DNA from: Catajapyx aquilonaris
Taxonomy: Eukaryota
Direction of reading: 5' to 3'
DNA: 64,000 bases
NCBI GenBank assembly: GCA_000934665.2
Contig: KZ538263.1
Location: 1-64,000, forward strand
A model generated the notes under the pieces. The model did not search any database. It had not been told where the DNA came from and saw only the letters and a list, made by a program, of their open reading frames with translations. Each line of letters begins with the position of its first letter. Within the stretch, counting starts at the first letter, position 1. Below, in pieces: positions 9,193 through 59,007 of the stretch. The position numbers and the translations under genes were made by a program.

Positions 9193-23954
<14,762 letters not shown>

Positions 23955-28500: not shown

Positions 28501-31500
28501 GAATATTTTTTATGACCAGAAAATATGTTTCCTTTGGCCTAAATCCGCCTCAAAAAAATAAAATAAAATTCTTGGGGCTCATCCAGATATATATTATTAA
28601 TTTCGTAGGAGTTCCCTGAGATGTGAATATGAAGGTTGAGAAACACTGTTTTATACTGTTGGTAATGCAAAAAACAATCCATCATGCTAGAGAGTGCCAA
28701 CATCTTCACCTGCATTCTGCGCAATACAGGTTGTAAACCTATGCCTCATAAAGGATGCGTTGTTCAGTCATTCGCAACAAGGAAGGAACAACCTGTCTTA
28801 CCTGATGCAGGCACATCCTAAGAGAGCAACGATTTCTGTTGGCTGCACCACACACTCCACCATAACTTGTAGTAGCTGCTCCAACATAAAAGTGACACCC
28901 ACCATTTGCTTTGCACTTAGGTCTGAAAATATTTGAACCTCAAGTACTTGTACTGCAGAATTTAGAGCAACAAAAGGTACGCACCAGCCTTCCGGTTAAG
29001 GCAATCCACTACCAAGTCTGACGTGAGGCCACAGCACTGCTTAAAATTGGCAGTACAATTTTTCCATCCGTTAGTCACGCGGCTGGCTCCTCGCAGCCAA
29101 TTTTGCAGCATCGGCAGGAGGAGGTGGTTCAGGCAAAATATACCAAAATCAGGACCTGAAGAAGAACAAAAGTACCGCAGCTATTGAAATGTATCCAGTA
29201 GCTGACTATGCCATATCGTACCAGGAACATCCAAAAGATTTCTCAGCAAAAAGAACAGTGTTTCCATTGTATGTGGCTGATATTTTCTTGGGCATGCAGT
29301 GGTTGCACTGACCATGCCTTCCACAAGCAAGTACCACACATGTAGAATTCCACTCCCATTGTCCATGCCAGGCAATGTAGTAGCTGTAACTGCAAAAAAA
29401 AACACTAACTGTAAGCCACAGCCTTAGTTTCAACCGCAATGAACAAACAACAGCCTCACCTTGATACTTTGAAATTGGCTTTCCATCTTCCTCATGTTCG
29501 CCTTTAAGGTCCTCACAGTGTTCAAAGTGCAAGATCGTCATGTTTGGAATGACAAAATCCACCACTTGCGGCATCTTATTTAGTTGGATTCGATGGGCCG
29601 CATGAAACAAAGGGCATGCTGGCATGTGGTACATTGACGCCAGCATGGTCGAGCACCGCTGGAGGTACTTCAGGGCTGCCAAGCACATGTCCAGTTCAGG
29701 TGTCTCCAAGTCTTCTGTGCTGTCCATCTGTTGTTCATCTAGCAAAGGATTGTTTTAAACACATGTTAAGGAATTTAAAAATTCAGTGACTATCACCTAA
29801 CTATTAAAATGCTAATGTACAGTTTCCCTTCTCAAACGAATATGCACTAACTCACCTTGGCCTCTGATATGCTTCAGTAAGCACAGAATACAATCCACTG
29901 CAGCATTGGCAAACACCAACACATTGTCCGTATTGAGAAATGCTTCAAACACGTCAAAAAGCACTCGGATGTGACAGTTCGGTTGGTTAGGATCCTGGTC
30001 CTCTTCCTCCATGGTCTGATTGCTGGGATGGGAACGATTTTGAGGGAAAATGCGCACTGCACGCAATGCTCCAAAAAGAGGCCGCCAGCCAGACCGGATC
30101 TCAGTCTTGTTGCCTTCCACAAACTCGCATATGGCACACACAATCTGCAATGGCATTCCCTACTAATAAAAGCCAATAGCGGCCAAGAGTCACGCCTTAC
30201 CTGATCTTGCACAACTTCATCACAAAGCTCCAAACACAGCAGATTCTCAAATGGCTTAAACAAAGCTTCGTTAAAGTGAAAATGTGGCAGTTCAGTTTGG
30301 TCGTTCAAGAGGGCATTCATCATGTCATGAATGCATGATATGGCCTTCTTTGAAATGGCATGGTCTTTGTGACATGCAGCCTGGAAAATAAAAGGCCAGA
30401 TAAAATTTGTCCCAATATTAAATACCTCTAAACTTGGTACCTCCATGAGATGGGGCCCGACAATGGACCAGACTTTCATGACGTGAATGAGAGGACGCCC
30501 ACTTCTCACACACTTAAGCATCACGTCGCCAACTCTGTGGAGAAGCAGCATGGGCGTGCTGGTCACTGATGGCTCCTGCACAGCGATGCTGACTTTAAGC
30601 CTCTTTCTCCACCGCTGCATCGTCTTGGAAGGAGTTGCAGTCTTCTTCGAGAGTTGGAAGAACAGTTGAGCTTGGCTGCTAGCACATAGCTCAATCAGAA
30701 AGTTCAGAAGAGACTGGAGATTGAGCTTTGTGGCAGCATCATCAAACAACCTGAAGCAAATCCCAAAATTGTGACGGGTTCCAACAGTCATTATTTCATG
30801 AACTTACATGTCCACCTGTTGTGAGAGTGAATAAACGACTTTGGTGGCATACTCAGCACTAAGCACACCATTTGAGACCACGTCAGCATTGCTCTCTTGA
30901 ATTAGTTCAGGAATTGGGACAGCCTGAATTGTTGGGTTTGTCGGAAGCGGAAGAAAATTCCTGAAAATTTGTGGTGAAACCAATACTGCTAGAGCAAGAG
31001 ACACCACCTAATCAAGTCCTTCTCTCATCTTGTTCTCACATACCCAACGTCATCGTCATCAACACCTAGAGACGAGTCCTTCTCTGACTGGGAATGCGGC
31101 TGCTGTGATTTGACCAGAAAATTTTTATTCTTTCCCTGGCTGTAGATCTGATGTTCCAGTTGCACCACATAAAGGCAACATCTGTAAAAAAAAAAAAAAA
31201 CAATGTCAAATTGCATAATGTTAAAACAACAATTGTGGATGATGGCTTCATAGTCAAAAGACTAAACAGAAAAACATTTCTGTCCTTACAGGTTAGTTTA
31301 ATATCTTGTGTTCTCATCAATGTGAAAATTTGTAATTCCTGAAGGTCCATCTACTTACTTGAATACATGTCTCCAACAGTCAGAACTATGGCTACCAAGT
31401 TCCAGCCCCCTGGTGAGCAGCACATCCATGCTCAGCACCTGCGCCGTGTGCAGCTTGACTGGCTTTTGCAGCAGCTTCAGTTTGGCCAACTGCTGCAACT

Positions 31501-40177: not shown

Positions 40178-41019
40178 ATGGAGATTAAGGTACGTTAAAT
40201 GCCTGTAACTGTACTACTATTTTTGTTGAAATTCTGAGCTACTTGTACTATGCTAACCAAAGACACTGCATCAAATAATGAGTTTTTAATTGGCAGGTAT
40301 TGCTGGTGATTTTCATTACGGCCCTGTTCAGCAGCGCTACGGCTGGAACCACACACTACAAGTTTAAGCATGGGTTTAAAATACATGACAAGCACGGCAC
40401 AGCAAAGATGGATGCCCATGGAGACAATCATGGATATGGCTTTGAGATAAACCAAAAGCATAAGGATGGCGTCAGTTTTCAGAAGCAAGGAGGAAGCATC
40501 CACGGTGATTTTGGTGGAGGATCTGAGAGTGGTGGAGTTGGGGGTGGGGCTGGAGGGATTGGAGGTGGGGCTGGAGGAATCGGAGGTGGAGTCGGAGCAG
40601 GAGCAGGAGGCTTCGGAGGAGGGGCTGGCGGAGGACTTGGTGGATTTGGAGGTGGGGCTGGAGGAATTGGAGGTGGAGTTGGAGCTGGAGCTGGAGGCTT
40701 CGGAGGAGGGGCTGGCGGAGGACTTGGTGGATTTGGAGGTGGGGCTGGAGGAATTGGAGGTGGAGTTGGAGCTGGAGCTGGAGGCTTTGGAGGAGGACTT
40801 GGTGGATTTGGAGGAGGGGCTGGCGGAGGACTTGGTGGGTTTGGGGGAGGAGCTGGAGGAATTGGTGGATTTGGGGGAGGAGCTGGAGGAATTGGCGGAT
40901 TTGGAGAGGGGATCGGAGGAGGAATTGGAGGATTTGGTGGAGGAATTGGAGGTGCATCAGGAGGACTAGGTTTGGCTTCCATTGCTGGCGGATACGGCAG
41001 TGGGTTTGGTGACAAATAA
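40178..41019 (+). CDS. Secreted glycine-rich protein A (cuticle-protein-like)
   Basis: TATAAAA at 40090; 12-nt exon 1 40178-40189 (MEIK), exon 2 40297-41019. Signal peptide, then the shared domain KHGFKIH...NHGYGFEINQKHKDGVSFQKQGG, then GGGAGG(I/F/L) repeats. Confidence 0.85.
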
Positions 41020-47746: not shown

Positions 47747-48371
47747 ATGAACACCGTGGTGAGTACACCAAAAAAAAGTGGACAAGTGGGTTGCCAGTGC
47801 TATGTGCAAATGTGTCCAACTTGAGCAGAAATTTGGATAAATAATTTTTTTGACAATTATTACAACACAGTATGGACGTAACATTTAAATTGCTGTTGTA
47901 AACATTTCATAACGTCAACTTTTACCTTCAATAGAAAATTAGCTAAACTAATTAATGTCCGGTTGCACCATCTCCAGGAAATATTTTCCGACTGGACAAA
48001 TGGTGCAACAGGATCTCTTAAGCTAACCTGTTTTGTCCAATGTCCAGATCCTTTTGTGTGTGGCATCCCTGGTGGCGTACGCCAACGCTGGAGGATTCGC
48101 CGAGTACAAACATGGCTTCTCTATCTACGGTCCGTACGGCGCAGCGCAGTTGGATGCGTCCGGAAGTAACCATGGGTACGACTTCAACTTGCACCAGCAG
48201 CACAAGCATGGCAGCAGCTATGTCAAGCAGAGTGGAAGCTTCGTCCATGAGGTACCGGTCGTCAAGGGACACGACGACGGTGGACACGGAGGATTCGGTG
48301 GAGATGACGGTGGACACGGAGGGTTCGATGGAGGTGACTTCGGAGGATTTGACGGTGGATACGGACACTAA
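47747..48371 (+). CDS. Small secreted Gly/His/Asp-rich protein D (cuticle-protein-like)
   Basis: TATATAA at 47655; exon 1 47747-47758 (MNTV), exon 2 48048-48371. Signal peptide, then YKHGFSIYGPYGAAQLDASGSNHGYDFNLHQQHKHGSSYVKQSG, then DDGGHGGF repeats. Confidence 0.85.
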
Positions 48372-50731: not shown

Positions 50732-51705
50732 TTAGTGGTGATGATGGTGGTACTTGTTGAATGAAGTGTAGGAGTGTCCGTAACCATGGTGGCCTCCGTC
50801 GCCTCCACCGCCGCCGCCTCCACTGCCACCACCGCCTCCTCCTCCACTGCCTCCACCGCCACCGCCGCTGCCTCCACCGCCGCCTCCGCTTCCTCCACTT
50901 CCTCCATCGCCTCCGAAGTTTCCAAGACCGAATCCGTGGTGATGTCCTCCGTCGCCACCATCGCCGCCGCCGCCGCCGCCTCCACCGCCGCCTCCACCAC
51001 CACCATCTCCGCCATGTCCGTGTTCATGCTTGACCTCAACTGGTGTCTCATGCTTGTAGTCAGCTCCCTGCCAGATGTAGCTGTGGCCTCCCTTCTTGTG
51101 GTCTTGCTTCAGCTGCAACAGGTCAAATGTCACACGTGCCAATAACTGGGTGTGGGTTGGTACTTACGTTGTACTTGTAGGTGTGCTTGTCGCCTTTGAC
51201 GTTGAGGTGAGCACTGATATGGTCGTGATGGTGGTCGTCACCACCGCCGCCGCCACCGCCGCCGCCACCGCCGCCGCCACCGCCACCGCCTCCTCCACCG
51301 CCACCGCTGCCGCCGCCACCACCGCTTCCGCCACCACCGTCGCCGCCATGATGGCCATGATGGTGGTGGTACACATAGTGGTGGTGATGGTCGTCACCAC
51401 CGTCGCCGCCGTCGCCGCCGCCTCCTCCTCCTCCACCGCCGCCGCCTCCTCCACTACCACCACCTTCGCCTCCCTTCTTCCCATGACCAACAGCCTTCAC
51501 GGCATACACATAACCATATCCCTTTCCTCCACTTCCTCCGTCACCGCCGCCGCCGCCTCCTCCACCGCCTCCTTCTTCGCCTCCATACCACTTGTGTCCC
51601 GCTGCGGCGCAGGCCACCAGTGCCGCCAGGCACAGCATCTGCAATGGAAACAGTCAATCCAGACAAACTGGTCATCAAAATCCAAAAACTCACCATCTTC
51701 GCCAT
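50732..51705 (-). CDS. Secreted poly-Gly/His protein E (cuticle-protein-like)
   Basis: TATATAA on the minus strand at ~51782-51788. Exons 51705-51694 (MAKM), 51638-51168 and 51112-50732 join in frame to give ...HISAHLNVKGDKHTYKYN|LKQDHKKGGHSYIWQG..., with long Gly runs and a C-terminal HHHHH. Confidence 0.85.
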
Positions 51706-52338
51706 GGTTGCAGCTCTTGAGATGCCTTGTTACTGGATGGTTGGGCTGACGAGTTGTGTCGATGTTGGACCTCGGTCAGCGTTATATACCCCCGGACCGG
51801 CGTGTGTCCCAAAGCTGGTTATGAGGGTCAACCCTTCCCTTTTTCCTTCCCTGTCCAACAACACATCCTATCCCTTCTTGTAAAACGGCTTTGCCTGTCA
51901 TTTGGGCAGGACAAAAGGCGTGGCCATCTGGCTCTCACCTTCACCTGTATCTTCTCTTGTACGGTACTCGGTACACCTCCTTTCCCCTCATCTATGGAAC
52001 ATCACCGTTGTATGAGTGATGATAACAGACACGAGACATGTCGATGTCACTTTATCTCGTTGAAGACTAATTAAGAATGTGGCTCAATCAACAGATTAAT
52101 GTTTGTTGCACTCATAATTAGGAATAGTACTTAATTTGGGTTCATACATCCGGTCATAGTATATGTAGGTTAAGTACTTTAATCCGGATTATTTAATGAC
52201 CTACAATTTTAAAAAATGGCGCCCACCATTATAATAAATAAGCATTAAAAATTTCTATATAGGTCATTTTATTTATGTGCATAAATATACAATCAGTTCT
52301 CGAGTTTTAAACACAATAGGCAGGTTATATAATTTTAA

Positions 52339-55300
52339 TTAAACAGGTTTGAGTCTGTAAGCTTTTCCGGAATCTTCGTCGTAGACTAAGCCTGAGTCTA
52401 GGTCGAAGCTTAGTCTCGGTTCTTTCTTTACAACAGGTTTCGACTCTGGTATAATCTTCTTGATGTCTTCTGAAGATGAGGTGTCCAACTCGCCTTTTAC
52501 TCTCGATTCAGCTTGTTCGTATGATGGAACCGGTTCGCTTCCTCCAAAACCCTGCAAAAAAAACCAGTTTTAAATATAGTTAACATGTACTTATTAGACC
52601 TTCAGTTAAACTCGTAAGGTAGAACCAACCTACTTTGCTCCAGTTTTTTTTTACTTACGCCCTAATGAAACAGCTATTGTCAACCCTGACACGTAACAAT
52701 TATTGTTCCGAATCCTAAAAATTCGTAGATACCATTTACTTTCACTGCAATAAGTATTACACAATCCACACTTGTGGAACCGGGCTACGCCACCTAATAA
52801 TATTGGGCTACCGGTGCAATAATCCATGACTTAAAAAAAACAATCAAGATTGAATTTACTTCTCTAAATGATTGGCTGAATAATAAAAAAATAAGGCGGT
52901 TTTGGGTTGCTTGTTTTACAGCCCGTTGATATAGAGAGGAGGAACTGCGTGGTCTGGTTTATTGCCAGGCTTTCTCTTGGCATGTGCCACCCAGTTTTTT
53001 GTCAATTAAATCGATGTGTTAACTACATCAGTGCTAAGTGACATATAGGACATTACCTCTCCTCCATATCCGTGATGATCATCATGGTGATCCTGTTGGA
53101 ACATAGAGCGATTAATATATTAGAGAGAAAAAAAGTAGCAGCTAATTACGCATGTCGCACCCCCCAAAAAAATTTATGGTGCACTTTAACTTAAGGTTAA
53201 ACTAATTTACCGCCAGGTATGAAGGACACTCAAAAAATGTCATGCTTTAAGATTTCCTTCACACTTTTTTTTGACGTATGACATGTCTAGACAATTATGA
53301 CACTTTTTGCTACTTCCCACTCCACCCCCCCCCGGATATGCATCAAACCGGTTGTAATAAATGAAACTGATTCACATCATGAAATATTCAGAGCAAGAAT
53401 TAGTATTATGGGACATTTCCTATTATTGCAACATAGTCTGTCCCAAGTATCCCGTGGACATCCATGGAATATCGGGCTGGACATCCACGATGGCCAAGGA
53501 TGTCCCGGATATGGCAGGTACATACCCCATGATTGTAATCCCAGTAATGTTCTCCGTAACCTCCCTTCTTGTCACCCCACCTCACCTAATAAGAGAAAAT
53601 TATGAGTGAATGACCTTGACATAAGCATAAGCATGTGCTAACAGAAAGCAGAAGAACACGCACATACATCAGTACACACATGATATGTGAAAAAAGCGAG
53701 AGTAAGTTCACAGTAAGAGAAGTTCTGTTATGGAGAGTAATGTCCTTACTTTAGTCTTGAAATGTCCAGCTTTTGGTTCGGCCTTCTCATGATGCTCTCG
53801 AAAATGGTGGTCGTTGCCACGACGGTACCCAAACTCGTACTTGTCATGGTCAGGTACTTGTGCGTACCTATATAGCGATAGACTCAAGAAGTACTAGCGA
53901 AGGACAGAAAGTGACAAGAGTGCAATGAACGCATCGTACGCACATACCGTCGTACGTACCTTACGTGATTGTGTAAATCAGGCCAGATTCATGAGCATGG
54001 CAGCCTTGAGTAATTACTCACACTCTACTAATTTACAATTTCGCTTCTCAACGATACGCTCTTGTGGGTTTTACACTGTTCATGAGGACGTCACACTGAT
54101 GCAAGTTCACACACAAAAAAGGCATTTTCAGAATAAGAATAAACGACAGTGGATGAAGATTTCGATTATTTTATCTTTGGAATGACGTCACCGGATGTCT
54201 AAAGTAGGAGGGCCACTGGCTAATCACAGCCAATCATGCAGCAAATCGCGCGGTTCTCAGGACGTCACTCATAATATCGATACGTAGATATCACTCAGAA
54301 ATATCGACGATATGAGGATATATGCCTTCTAGAAATATCGATACGTAGATATTCAACCAGACATAGATATTTCTGGGTGACATCAACATATCGATATGTC
54401 TTGGTTGAATATCTACGTATCGATATTTTGGGGGGACAGCCACATATCGATGTGTTACTGTCACCCAAAAATATCGATACTTAGATATTCAATGAAGACA
54501 TCAATATCTACATATCCATATTTCTAGGTGACATCAACATATCGATGTCTGGATTGCATATCTACGTATCGATATTTTTGGGTGACATTACCATATCGAT
54601 ATGTTGATGTCACCCAAAAATATCGATACGTAGATATTCAACCAGACATCGATATCTACATATGGATATTTCTGGGTGACATCCACATATCGATATGTCC
54701 TGTTGAATATCTAAGTATCGATATTTGGGGGGGGGACATCAACATATCGATATGTTACTGTCACCCAAAAATATCGATACGTAGATATTCAACCAAGACA
54801 TCAATATCTACATATCATCGATATTTTTGGGTGACATCAACATATCGACGTCTTGGTTGCATATCTACGTATCAATATTTTTTGGGTGACATTACCATAT
54901 CGATATTTTTGAGTGACATTAACATATCGATATTTTTGAGTGACATTAACATATCGATATGTTGATGTCCCCCCCCCAAATATCGATATTTAGATATTCA
55001 ACAGGACATATCGATATGTGGATGTCACCCAGAAATATCCATATGTAGATATCGATGTCTGGTTGAATATCTACGTATCGATATTTTTGGGTGACATCAA
55101 CATATCGATATGGTAATGTCACTCAAAATATAGATACGTAGATATGCAATCCAGACATCAATATGTTGATGTCACCCAAAAATATCGATGTAGATGTTCA
55201 ACCAAGACATCGATATGCTGATGCCACCCAGAAATATCGATATGCTGATGCAACCCAAAAATCGATATTTTGATACATAGCGAAACCATTAGTGTCATTA

Positions 55301-55865
55301 AATTGAATAAAAACGTCATTCCAAATTTTGAACAATCGGACAGTGCAGCACCGTATGATCCCGAAGATCTACTTTTGAGAGTACCTTCCCCTGAACCACG
55401 TGTTGGTCTCTTCTCTCGAATTTCTCCTCCCACTGGTCTGGGTCCTCGCACACGTGACCCAACTCGTATTGCAAAGGTCCGTACCTGTGGTCGTACATAT
55501 TCCTACACAAAAAGTGGCACGCACATTGTCAAAAATGTGTAACTCACATGTAGTATTTGCTGTCGATTCCACCTCCACCTCCACCACCACTTCCTCCACT
55601 TTCAGACGTATCATGGTCTTCTCCTACAGCTATAAATATTTAATAGTTAGTATGCTAATTTTTTAAACTGTCGTCTTGTTTTACCGTTGCCTCCGCCGAA
55701 TCCGACTTGTCTGGCAACCTTCTTGGACTCTGATGTGTCCTGGACACTTCCGGACACTACACCAAGCAGGACAAGAGCCAAAATGTTCCTCGTCTGTAAC
55801 ATTATATTGTAAATATTTCGACCCGAATTTAAACTTAAACCCGGTTTTACCTTCAGTGAATACAT
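52339..55865 (-). CDS. Secreted protein F with VRWGDKxGGYGEHYWDYNH motif and two alternative internal exons
   Basis: Exons 55865-55851 (MYSLK), 55793-55685 (signal peptide), 55629-55548, then [55502-55385 or 53867-53750], then 53585-53526 (VRWGDKKGGYGEHYWDYNHG), 53092-53057 (DHHDDHHGYGGE) and 52551-52339 (...LSFDLDSGLVYDEDSGKAYRLKPV*). TATA box at ~55920-55926. All junctions are GT-AG and in frame. Most exons are too short to appear in the ORF track. Confidence 0.8.
53750..53867 (-). CDS. Alternative exon 4b of gene F
   Basis: 118 nt, phase 2 to phase 0, encoding YAQVPDHDKYEFGYRRGNDHHFREHHEKAEPKAGHFKTK. Acceptor TATATAG, donor GTAAGG. Confidence 0.8.
54262..55270. repeat. TATCGATA-rich fold-back minisatellite, ~1 kb
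   Basis: Many ~20-25 bp units such as GGGTGACATCAACATATCGATAT in both orientations. Arms at 54527-54757 and 54947-55176 are near-perfect reverse complements. Confidence 0.9.
55385..55502 (-). CDS. Alternative exon 4a of gene F
   Basis: 118 nt, phase 2 to phase 0, encoding NMYDHRYGPLQYELGHVCEDPDQWEEKFERRDQHVVQGK. Acceptor TGTGTAG, donor GTACTC. Confidence 0.75.
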
Positions 55866-56146
55866 GATGACACGGAGAATGCACCTTTCAAACTCTCGGT
55901 ACGCTCACAATTGTCTTCTTTATATACGCGTTTTAGTGTACACAAAAAATCGTACGGTGTCCACGGTTCAACAGTCTCTACGGCATCACTAGTCACCGCT
56001 GTTTTTTATTGTTTTAAAAAAATCTTCCGTCACGTCCAACGTTCAGGAAGAGAAATTCGACGGACTAAAAAAATTAGGCACAATTTTCAAAAAAATATTG
56101 GGAACAATTTTCAAAAAAAAATTGGGCAATTTTAAAATTATTTTGT

Positions 56147-57412
56147 CTAAATACATCCACTGTTTTCGATTGAATATTTCATTTCTTCAAAGATGGCGAA
56201 GAAGCTGTTGCGGTACACGTGCTTCCATTTGGGGTCTCGTACTACACGCATTATTATCGAGATGATGTCGTTCATCGGGTCATTCCCAGGTTGGGCATGA
56301 CCTGGGTCAACCATGACCGCTTCGTAATCTCTCAACATCGGGTTGGCCACGAATATAGGGAGAAGGAAGAGCATGAGGGCATTCCGCTTACGAAAGTCCT
56401 CAGCCATTTCCTCGAAGGTGAATTTGACCTCTGACCCTAACGAGGTCACGTTGGCAGCGAAGGTGTCGTAGTAACATCGGAGAAGGTGGATCAAGTGCTT
56501 CTTCCTGAACTCGACACTGGTGCTGACCATGATGTAGTTGTTGAGGTCAACGGTCAGGGAGGATATGCTGGTCACCTGCATGTCGAAGAGCTTGATTTCG
56601 ACTGGTACGTCGTTGTGGTACCGGAACAGCATATTGTTGCTCCAACAGTCACGGTGGGCTACGACCGCGTAAGGTCCGGGGTCCTGCACCATCTTCATTC
56701 CGATGTCGTATATCTTGTCCTTGGCACGTCGTAAGATTTCGACCAGGTCCGAGTGGTCATCTTCGTCAACCAGTACGTCCATGACTCCTGAGAAACAGTT
56801 GATGAAGTACGGCTTGAACTCGGCCTCACCCTCTGGTGCCATCAGCTTCTCCTCGAGGTACGGACACTGGTCAGTGTTGGGGTACCCTGTCTGCTGCATC
56901 ATGGAGTACGACACAGAGTGGAAGTCAGCCAGAGCCTTGATGGCCAACTGGGCATGGGCAATGTCGTGTCCGTCTGAAGACAAAGGAAAAAGACAGAACC
57001 CGTGTCTCTTCAGGTCTTCTAGTGCCAACAAGTCACGTACTTGGTCATACAGTGCGTAGTAGCATCGGGGGAAGCTGAGGACAATGCGGCTGGACCGATA
57101 CTCCAAGAACTCCTCCATGGCTGGCAGGACAGTGTCGTAGAACCTGATTTCCTTCAGACCCATCTGGGCAGCTCTAATCAGCTTCAGGTTGACATCACCC
57201 ATGAACTTCAGGAACATATGCAGCATCGTCTCCGTACCGTCGCTGCCCACGTAGGTCAACTGCAACTGACCCACTGCGCATCCAAAGTGCTCGCCTTTCA
57301 AGTCCAGCTGCGATGACTCCATCTGCTTGATGACCAGTCCGTCGTCCTTCAGCTTCTTCCTCAAGGAAGACAGCATCAGATCAGTTGAGATGTAGCTGAC
57401 TATGTGCGCCAT
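56147..57412 (-). CDS. Ecdysteroid kinase-like (EcKL / DUF227, choline-kinase-like) protein, single coding exon
   Basis: ~420-aa uninterrupted ORF with KGEHFG, FLK, KEIRFY, LEDL, LADFHSVS, the Brenner-type motif HRDCWSNNMLF, and DMQ. Start is probably the ATG at 57412 (MAHIV). Confidence 0.88.
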   Translation of the reverse strand: MAHIVSYISTDLMLSSLRKKLKDDGLVIKQMESSQLDLKGEHFGCAVGQLQLTYVGSDGTETMLHMFLKFMGDVNLKLIRAAQMGLKEIRFYDTVLPAMEEFLEYRSSRIVLSFPRCYYALYDQVRDLLALEDLKRHGFCLFPLSSDGHDIAHAQLAIKALADFHSVSYSMMQQTGYPNTDQCPYLEEKLMAPEGEAEFKPYFINCFSGVMDVLVDEDDHSDLVEILRRAKDKIYDIGMKMVQDPGPYAVVAHRDCWSNNMLFRYHNDVPVEIKLFDMQVTSISSLTVDLNNYIMVSTSVEFRKKHLIHLLRCYYDTFAANVTSLGSEVKFTFEEMAEDFRKRNALMLFLLPIFVANPMLRDYEAVMVDPGHAQPGNDPMNDIISIIMRVVRDPKWKHVYRNSFFAIFEEMKYSIENSGCI

Positions 57413-59007
57413 TGCTTGCAACTGATGTACCTATCGGGTATGGTGCAATCACAGGTGTTAGTTAGAAGGCCATCTATAGATAACCACTACGTCACAGGTG
57501 CTTCCCTATCAGAATCGAGGTCACTCCTTTTGATTTCCATGACCTTAATAGACCCCCAGTCGCCTGCATATGGCCCAAACGACGTAATCAGTCAGCTTTA
57601 ATTACCAACGGGGGTGGACTTTTTCCGTTGTAAATGCCCTCAAGTGGTAATAATAATACATTTCGATAAACGTGTGCACCCAATAAGTGGAGCAACCCAG
57701 GTGCCATAAAAAGCAACTGACACTGCCAAGCACCCCCTTCACTCTCTCTAAGCCGCTGTGCACGTTGGGATATGCATTCTTCCGCTTTCGTATTCAGATT
57801 CACCTGGAAAGTGTCACTCATGCATGGCCCAGGTCATGCCGGCCAATCATAAAGCGAGGTCACATTTTTGTGACTAATTTATTCTCATTTTACATATAAC
57901 ACACTTGCACACAGTTTATGCCCATCAGAAAAATTGGTAATAGCCCATACACTAGTCTTTTGAGAGAAAAAAAAAATGAAAACAAATTCATTATTACTAG
58001 AGGAATGGAATTTTTTTTTTGAAGAACTTACCAAGAGTTTACAAGGGACGGTCCAGAAGCGACTGCTCGCCAATAGGAACAATAGGTGTTGCGAGGAGGC
58101 AAAAAATACATTTTCAGTTACGACCAAAATGTGCCACTGCATTCCGTACAGAGTGATGCTTGAGTGGCAATGATTCGTAGTTTGCTCCTCAAAGAGCATT
58201 TACTGACATGATTCAGAAACCACTTTACCTTCAATACATGAGCCTTCTGACCCTTCCCTTGCTCGTCGCAGGTTTCAAAACGCAAATATTGTCATGTTAT
58301 TCACACTTGCACTGTAATAAGTGCCATGCAAAAATTCTTGTGGGTTTTTAAACATCTTCGTAAGTCCTTCATGACACAGTGGGTCAAAACCTGAACAGTC
58401 AGTAACCAACATCCTGCAACTTTAAAAAATGCTGTCATTATCTTCAATTGGATCCACTCTTCGTCCAGCAGGAATTCATTGGAATCCGACTGAGCAGATA
58501 TTGACCATCATATAAAAAGGTACACCACACTACTGGTGAAAAACAAAACATGACTTCACTTTCAATGTTTGAAAATGGACACCCAAGGTGTATCAATGCA
58601 CCCTGAAGTTATCGACGACAAGTGCACAGGCTGATGGGGGCAGTCCCAGTAAAACCAGCCGGCAATCATGGAGGAAAGAAAGAACCAGTAATGCAGCAGA
58701 GAGAGCCGACGGCCACTCTACTTTCAATGGTTACTAATACAGTCCGTCCCAGCTACACAAAGCAGAAAGCTGAGACATTATCTGAATTACATACTCATTT
58801 TGAAACGATCAAGAACGAAAATTAAATGTAACCTAAAAAAAAAAAACAACCTCCACCTAAGATCTTCCAGTCTTACAAATCGAGCCTAGGTATCACCCAA
58901 TGCATAGGAAAAAAATGAAAATAAAACCAACACAAAAACATGAGAAATCAGTTTTCGAAGACGGCCTGGTAAAAAGCTGCGGAGAAGGCAGCAGTTGATC
59001 ATGGCGG

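Follow-up and report, generated by a model that had tools for sequence, protein, structure and literature searches.

Exons 4a and 4b of gene F: a candidate diverged tandem duplicate with frame-dependent exclusivity in a small secreted-protein gene

The gene F locus

Gene F lies on the minus strand of the window (the whole 64-kb stretch of DNA that was analysed), in an arthropod-like genome, and encodes a small secreted protein with Gly/His-rich character. Its open frame runs from the ATG at 55865 to the TAA at 52339 through seven exon positions, for the fourth of which two candidate exons, 4a and 4b, are available (Table 1). Exon 3 is separated from 4a by an intron of 45 nt, the shortest in the gene, and the intron between 4a and 4b, which is filled with repeats, measures 1517 nt. 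A tblastn search with both isoforms across the 64-kb window recovered the gene itself and no paralogue, and the same window gave no match in Rfam.

Table 1. Positions of gene F, its exons and the intronic repeat array, in window coordinates
Feature	Position	Strand	Description
Gene F, whole unit	52268..55926	-	TATA-like box (55926-55919) to AATAAA (52273-52268), motif positions; exon chain by translation
Exon 1	55851..55865	-	ATG and start of signal peptide; donor AAG|GTAAAA
Exon 2	55685..55793	-	109 nt; hydrophobic core of signal peptide, then first Gly-rich residues
Exon 3	55548..55629	-	82 nt; final two bases form a partial codon; donor CAT|GTGAGT
Exon 4a	55385..55502	-	118 nt; acidic; the protein's sole Cys; donor AAG|GTACTC, weak
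Repeat array in 4a-4b intron	54320..55275		palindromic and tandem; arms up to 232 nt, 93% complementarity
Exon 4b	53750..53867	-	118 nt; basic, His-rich; donor AAA|GTAAGG
Exon 5	53526..53585	-	60 nt, 20 aa; W/G/Y/H-rich conserved motif
Exon 6	53057..53092	-	36 nt; His/Asp-rich
Exon 7	52339..52551	-	70 codons and TAA; C-terminal motif like the C-terminus of P0008

Splice sites and reading frame

The original prediction placed two exons of identical length and phase at the fourth position, either of which alone would keep the frame. Inspection of the locus bore this out: the coordinates of both exons are right, and each is flanked by AG on its 5' side and GT on its 3' side. The two bases left over from exon 3 join the first base of 4a or 4b to form ATG, after which 39 codons lead to a phase 0 end. 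On translation, 4a alone or 4b alone gives a 633-nt coding sequence (CDS) of 210 aa, whereas the inclusion of both or neither leads to an early stop, which lies five codons into 4b in the former case and at the exon 3/5 junction in the latter. Joint inclusion or joint skipping truncates the product because 118 is not divisible by three.

The pair was also compared with the published criteria for clusters of mutually exclusive exons (PMC3228551; PMC5740500). The two lie next to each other and no constitutive exon intervenes, their lengths are equal (the default tolerance being 20 aa), and they share the AG/GT splice-site type and the reading frame, each with 39 open codons and no in-frame stop. 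As evidence in its own right, the equal length to which the original prediction had pointed is weak. The rest of the window holds 87 candidates that combine an open frame between AG and GT with a length of exactly 118 nt. At this density, a 1.68-kb intron should contain ~1.2 of them, so that the single one observed is near chance expectation; the intron upstream of 4b also holds 30 frame-compatible candidates. Moreover, none of the three forward frames of 4a contains a stop, which leaves its openness in the claimed frame with little evidential value.

The donor of 4a, GTACTC, is the weakest in gene F (the others being GTAAAA, GTGAGT, GTAAGG, GTATGT and GTAATG). A second in-frame acceptor was found within 4a, from which the exon would start at 55484 and measure 100 nt. 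With this internal acceptor, the full-length open frame is kept in a 615-nt CDS, and the first five bases of the shortened 4a are identical to those of 4b.

Composition and charge

4a has the appearance of coding sequence, its GC content and codon usage both being exon-like. Its GC content is 0.53 (0.62/0.26/0.72 by codon position) versus 0.38-0.40 in the flanking intron, that of 4b being 0.48. In the claimed frame, the codon log-odds of 4a come to 0.431 bits per codon, whereas its other two frames give -0.145 and 0.224. Ranked against 1345 open AG..GT null candidates, 4a falls within the top 2.5%; the corresponding value for 4b is 0.350, in the top 4.5%. Among all gene F exons, 4a ranks highest in both GC and codon log-odds, and does so in the required frame.

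The encoded segments had been described as chemically opposite versions of one domain. This holds for the exon peptides: that of 4a has a pI of 5.07 (nine D+E, five K+R, three His and one Cys), and that of 4b a pI of 8.31 (seven D+E, eight K+R, six His and no Cys). It does not extend to the whole isoforms, both of which are acidic, with pI values, computed from residue 22 on, of 5.08 and 5.78.

Relationship between exons 4a and 4b

The weak homology reported earlier between the two peptides proved no better than that of shuffled sequences (local P 0.23, global P 0.40). The published WebScipio-type threshold requires a global BLOSUM62 score of at least 15% of the self-score; the relative score of the pair is -2.2%, rising to +1.7% when the internal acceptor is assumed. 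Of 3550 null candidates, only 8 reach the score of 4a against the 4b peptide.

Judged by nucleotide alignment, 4a and 4b are related at the DNA level. Their global alignment has a z of 5.5, a score reached by 0 of 2000 shuffles. When 3619 windows on both strands were scanned with 4b, 4a was its top non-self match (41 vs 30); since the intron upstream of 4b makes up ~1.3% of the two-strand search space, it is in itself unlikely that the top match would fall there. A larger null agrees, with none of 5963 windows reaching the local score of 41 (maximum 30; Gumbel P ~1e-5 per window), and neither did any of 5000 codon shuffles. The match depends on permitting gaps of 1-2 nt. In codon register the similarity is not significant (P 0.25), and therefore much of the homologous DNA would sit in different reading frames. 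Homology of this out-of-register kind is also expected of a decaying copy. With blastn across the whole window, the match between the two exons has an E of only 0.82. For both exon peptides, a protein-language-model search gave one and the same Atlas cluster as the nearest (scores of 0.87 and 0.78); like all Atlas scores below 0.9, these serve as a lead only.

Database relatives and the cuticle-protein lead

The downstream VRWGD...NH motif is conserved in other organisms. Eleven database proteins (P0001-P0011) match the exon-5 motif at E <= 1e-3 with 63-90% identity, and the alignment has 12 invariant columns over 20 residues. These proteins are ORF fragments from metagenome and assembly gene calls, one of them located on a 17.9-kb contig, and they begin at, or a little ahead of, the same Val, which points to an exon boundary shared with gene F; by this alignment, the upstream boundary of exon 5 appears to lie at the same place in the fragments from other organisms. 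The C-terminal motif of P0008 resembles that of exon 7, and the linker regions of the fragments vary widely in length and composition relative to gene F. Because an exon-4 counterpart is absent from every fragment, the family is uninformative on the exon pair. A twelfth protein, P0012 (403 aa, a cluster member), was set aside, as it has no motif in common with the exon-5 fragment family.

Further searches were conducted with individual exons. Word-index searches gave no candidate for 4b among longer proteins and none for 4a, taken inside its 70-aa ORF, among proteins of 38-123 aa; the terminal exon gave 70 candidates among longer proteins, 0 of them scoring. The original prediction had suggested that both motif types occur in uncharacterised insect proteins, but these searches recovered no relative of either exon 4 peptide. 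From 429 stretches of metagenome contigs matched to 4a, two loci passed, and these were rejected because they share only an identical run of 11 residues in an unrelated context. The exon-5 alignment yielded one spurious 14-residue match in prokaryote genome contigs, located in a bacterial MAG, and no match in viral contigs. No literature mention was found of four gene F motif strings.

Like the genes for Rebers-Riddiford cuticle proteins (Pfam PF00379, Chitin_bind_4), gene F encodes a small, secreted protein of arthropod type, and its exon 4 has a motif containing Tyr, Phe and Gly. PF00379 is carried by some members of the Atlas clusters nearest to the two exon peptides: 14% of members in the first cluster and, for 4b, 95% in the second and 58% in the third. 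Neither isoform contains the Rebers-Riddiford consensus pattern. When each exon was scanned singly, no relevant Pfam family, PF00379 included, was matched by 4a or 4b at E <= 10 or by the pieces from exons 5, 6 and 7 at E <= 1, and six related fragments gave no match either. Among the papers listed on mutually exclusive exons and cuticular proteins, titles and the opening parts of abstracts revealed no such exon pair.

Interpretation

We judge it about an even chance that 4a and 4b are a diverged tandem exon duplicate whose members are used mutually exclusively. According to this scheme, one ancestral exon would have duplicated in tandem to give 4a and 4b, which then diverged. Both would be spliced, with productive mRNAs carrying exactly one of them. 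The reading frame would enforce the exclusivity of the productive product, with wrong products cut short and probably degraded by nonsense-mediated decay. Exon choice would swap 39 residues just upstream of the conserved motif, exchanging an acidic segment with a Cys for a basic, His-rich one. An unlikely but more radical form of use of both exons is that one of them has been re-framed, small compensating indels having shifted much of the homologous DNA to another frame. If so, the alternatives would share an anchor motif and both exon ends and otherwise encode unrelated peptides, one acidic with a lone Cys and the other basic and His-rich; the swap, just ahead of an arthropod motif under strong conservation, would then involve sequences without homology instead of alternative versions of a single fold.

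A tentative reading that nevertheless carries real weight is that only one exon is used, most likely 4b, the other being a duplication relic, a skipped pseudo-exon or an exon found only in decay-bound transcripts. The peptides are not significantly alike and fall below the 15% similarity criterion, and a DNA homology that depends on gaps of 1-2 nt and is lost in codon register is what frameshifting decay would leave. The uninformative open frame, the weakest donor and the 45-nt upstream intron all belong to 4a, and 4b fits in with exons 5 and 6, which are also rich in His. The majority of predicted human candidates for mutually exclusive exons were also not validated, with only 855-1399 of 6541 confirmed (PMC5740500). 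A long-dead copy, however, should drift to intron composition, and 4a instead tops gene F in GC and codon log-odds; despite heavy divergence, it retains a usable AG/GT pair and a frame-preserving length.

The remaining alternatives concern what 4a is and how its ends are set. We find it quite improbable that both exons are used through other splice sites, in which case the equal length would not be read by the cell. For example, 4a could be spliced from 55484, or an 18-nt micro-exon (55502-55485) could be joined to 4b. The internal acceptor keeps the full-length frame, lengthens the upstream intron from 45 nt to 63 nt and gives 4a the same five-base start as 4b, and the same CAG|GT, as read from the sequence, could double as a donor. 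The outer acceptor, in contrast, is the first AG past the best branch-point-like element, TTGAC, and has the better pyrimidine run. Least credible of all is that 4a has no relation to 4b and is simply an open AG..GT stretch that arose by chance, its equal length being coincidental. Open stretches of this size, including frame-compatible ones, are common enough for this, and the peptide similarity is at chance level; however, 4a is the best DNA match to 4b window-wide, at a score that no null window or codon shuffle equals, and both its codon usage and its score against the 4b peptide are rare among null candidates.

Should both exons be used, as in the favoured scheme of a mutually exclusive tandem duplicate, an uncharacterised, conserved arthropod secreted-protein family would gain a built-in switch, through which local charge, His content and the presence of a lone Cys would be changed right beside the conserved motif. 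In that case, 4a and 4b would be missed by standard predictors because their peptides are too dissimilar. The general significance would be modest, because tandem duplicate exons kept exclusive by the reading frame are a well-known phenomenon.

Comparison with known mutually exclusive exons

Classic insect examples of mutually exclusive exons are found in Dscam1, Mhc and 14-3-3zeta. In animals more broadly, two reports describe the prediction of tandem-duplicated mutually exclusive exons by WebScipio/Kassiopeia (PMC3228551) and their validation in humans, where the lengths in 60% of validated clusters are not divisible by three (PMC5740500). Unlike in some known systems, no steric or U12-type constraint applies to 4a and 4b, which are separated by a 1517-nt intron and have GT-AG sites throughout. 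Docking/selector duplexes were assessed for four region pairs with 30 shuffles each, and 20, 2, 20 and 28 shuffles, respectively, were equal or better.

The pair also differs from known mutually exclusive exons in that its peptides lie under the published similarity threshold and most of its DNA homology falls outside codon register. In other respects it is like them: 4a and 4b are adjacent and internal, have the same length and phase and compatible splice sites, and carry a DNA-level trace of duplication, and with a length that is not divisible by three, their joint use or skipping breaks the frame.

Structure of gene F and its neighborhood

Gene F encodes a small, secreted-type Gly/His-rich protein within a eukaryotic, arthropod-like region. 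Its exon chain was obtained by sequence reading and then checked by translation, and GT-AG boundaries are present at every intron. Judged from the translation, the N-terminus carries a hydrophobic core that appears typical of signal peptides. Four further ORFs clustered beside the gene encode Gly/His-rich, low-complexity products with signal-peptide-like starts; a Pfam scan of three of these gave no match. Owing to their composition, these ORFs give some of the highest-scoring chance matches to the 4b peptide.

Gene F and other features of the window (forward-strand coordinates)
Feature	Coordinates	Strand	Remark
Single N	5606		
Runt-domain exon	10468-10815	+	E 2e-49
Assembly gap	20620-20894		run of 275 N
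Mon2/Sec7-like HDS match	29877-30803	-	weak, under curated cut-off
ORF beside gene F	40282-41016	+	no Pfam match
ORF beside gene F	48027-48368	+	no Pfam match (48027-48371)
ORF beside gene F	50735-51163	-	
ORF beside gene F	51126-51653	-	no Pfam match (51123-51653)
Gene F, AATAAA	52273-52268	-	end of extent
Exon 7	52551-52339	-	holds TAA
Exon 6	53092-53057	-	
Exon 5	53585-53526	-	
Exon 4b	53867-53750	-	
Repeat array	54320-55275		intron 4a-4b
Exon 4a	55502-55385	-	
Site inside 4a	55485-55484	-	CAG/GTACGG
Exon 3	55629-55548	-	
Exon 2	55793-55685	-	
Exon 1	55865-55851	-	holds ATG
Gene F, TATA-like box	55926-55919	-	start of extent
Ecdysteroid-kinase-like ORF	56150-57430	-	next gene upstream; intron-less, full (Pfam EcKL, E 2e-50)

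A frame-exclusive exon pair

The original prediction of an equal-length, same-phase, frame-exclusive pair was borne out by coordinates, flanks and translation of the splice outcomes, and the observation is confirmed. Exons 4a and 4b are 118 nt each with AG/GT flanks, and in either exon one base finishes the split codon of exon 3 before 39 codons follow. Either 4a alone or 4b alone gives a CDS of 633 nt (210 aa); joining both places a stop five codons into 4b, and skipping both creates one at the exon 3/5 junction. A productive product was shown to require single inclusion. The site inside 4a offers a second in-frame acceptor 18 nt into the exon, yielding a 100-nt exon, and the first five bases of this internally started 4a are shared with 4b. 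Used instead as a donor, the same site would define an 18-nt micro-exon that could join 4b in frame.

The proposed contrast of an acidic and a basic version holds locally, with 4a at pI 5.07 and carrying the sole Cys of the protein, and 4b at pI 8.31 with six His and no Cys. It does not extend to the whole isoforms, both of which are acidic (pI 5.08 and 5.78 from residue 22 onward).

Relatives and protein family

When 1.84 billion representatives were searched in full by phmmer with the exon-5 peptide as query, 11 proteins reached E <= 1e-3, being 63-90% identical across its 20 residues. Nearly all are short gene calls whose first residue is a shared Val or lies shortly ahead of it; this Val mostly follows a Gln, compatible with a CAG acceptor. 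One 273-aa ORF extends from the Val as far as a C-terminal motif resembling that of exon 7. Given this common start and 12 invariant positions in a 14-row alignment, the exon-5 motif is conserved, and so, it appears, is the exon boundary on its upstream side. The exon-4 part is absent from all 11 fragments. The 90% cluster of one of them, the 52-aa P0001, also includes the 403-aa P0012 without any common motif, which looks like a clustering error in the collection.

Word-index searches yielded no relative of 4b or the terminal exon among longer proteins, nor of 4a among proteins of 38-123 aa, and metagenome, genome and viral scans gave spurious short matches at most. On metagenome contigs L001 (302-334) and L002 (10001-10033), 11 consecutive residues repeat a stretch of the 4a peptide exactly, but they lie in an otherwise unrelated reading frame and the match is a coincidence. 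Pfam matched no family among the gene F exons and related fragments. The protein atlas places the 4a and 4b peptides nearest to one common 66-aa cluster, 14% of whose members carry Chitin_bind_4; since their scores (0.87 and 0.78) fall under the 0.9 line, this tie is no more than a lead. Neither isoform contains the Rebers-Riddiford pattern.

Shared origin, relic or coincidence

Equal length and phase by themselves are not beyond chance. Gene F aside, 87 open AG..GT candidates measuring exactly 118 nt occur in the window. At that density ~1.2 would fall in every 1.68 kb, which is the length of the intron around 4a; this intron has four AG-118-GT pairs, and 4a is the one that is open. Because all three forward frames of 4a are open, its open frame says little. 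Nor did the weak peptide homology originally proposed survive, as shuffles do as well (local score 28, P 0.23; global 17, P 0.40; 5000 each). Under the scheme described for WebScipio (global BLOSUM62, gaps -10/-2, score over self-score, default threshold 15%; PMC3228551), the pair reaches -2.2%; even so, just 8 of the window's 3550 null candidates match 4b as well as 4a does, and none reaches 15%. Nucleotide alignments nevertheless indicate that 4a and 4b are related at the DNA level, which makes a chance pairing very improbable. Aligned globally, the pair scores 67, whereas shuffles give 25.2 +/- 7.6 (0/2000 as high). When both strands were scanned by Smith-Waterman (3619 windows), 4b had its best non-self match in 4a, at 41 versus 30 for the next unrelated place. 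A score of 41 was reached by none of 5963 118-nt windows (maximum 30; Gumbel P ~1e-5 per window) and by no codon shuffle of 4a out of 5000 (maximum 35), and none of 2709 GC-matched windows exceeded 26. Blastn lends weaker support, with 45 columns at 75.6% identity and an E of 0.82 over the window as a whole; these scores together lead to a cautious P of 0.001-0.01 for the intron. The homology is unusual in being largely out of codon register, and it hinges on 1-2 nt gaps. The best alignment has five blocks in register (33 nt, 28 matches) and five out of register (54 nt, 39 matches), whole-codon gaps alone give 18 against 15.5 +/- 3.0 (P 0.25, 1500 shuffles), and ungapped alignment at a two-codon shift gives 52/112 identities versus 23-36% at other shifts. 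Should 4a and 4b both be in use, they would encode partly non-homologous peptides.

Common ancestry also suits a duplicate of which one copy is now an unused relic, a serious possibility though one we rate below mutually exclusive use. The donor of 4a (GTACTC) is the weakest in gene F, its preceding intron is 45 nt where introns 1 and 2 measure 57 and 55 nt, and the second in-frame acceptor counts against it. Composition argues for a living exon: the GC of 4a is 0.53 (0.62/0.26/0.72 by codon position), compared with 0.44-0.54 in other gene F exons of at least 36 nt and 0.40 and 0.38 in flanking intron segments. On a codon log-odds score trained on seven long ORFs of the window, 4a reaches 0.431 bits per codon in its claimed frame, the top value among gene F exons (other frames, -0.145 and 0.224). 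This places 4a in the top 2.5%, and 4b (0.350) in the top 4.5%, of 1345 open AG..GT candidates, a conservative null because real exons of other genes remain in it. Use of the pair through other splice sites, for which the internal acceptor gives an opening, is unlikely. Genuinely mutually exclusive use is plausible, at roughly even chances, and the pair stands as a candidate.

Exon choice and known systems

With 1517 nt of intron separating 4a from 4b, steric hindrance does not fit; nor does U2/U12 incompatibility, since every site is GT-AG. For four pairs of intron regions folded as duplexes, complementarity did not rise above that of shuffles. The 956-nt array between the exons combines tandem with palindromic repeats, showing periods of 27, 52, 149 and 358 nt and inverted arms that reach 232 nt at 93% complementarity, and looks, from its sequence, like a foldback or MITE-like element. 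In the pre-mRNA it would fold back into long double-stranded RNA, drawing 4a and 4b closer. Joint or skipped products would presumably be removed by nonsense-mediated decay.

Mutually exclusive exon pairs are already well known, and gene F would add a member. As reported for human genes in PMC5740500, 855-1399 of 6541 predicted candidates were validated, a sobering base rate. Lengths not divisible by three occur in 60% of the validated clusters, so the decay-enforced exclusivity envisaged for gene F would correspond to the commonest situation there (PMC5740500).
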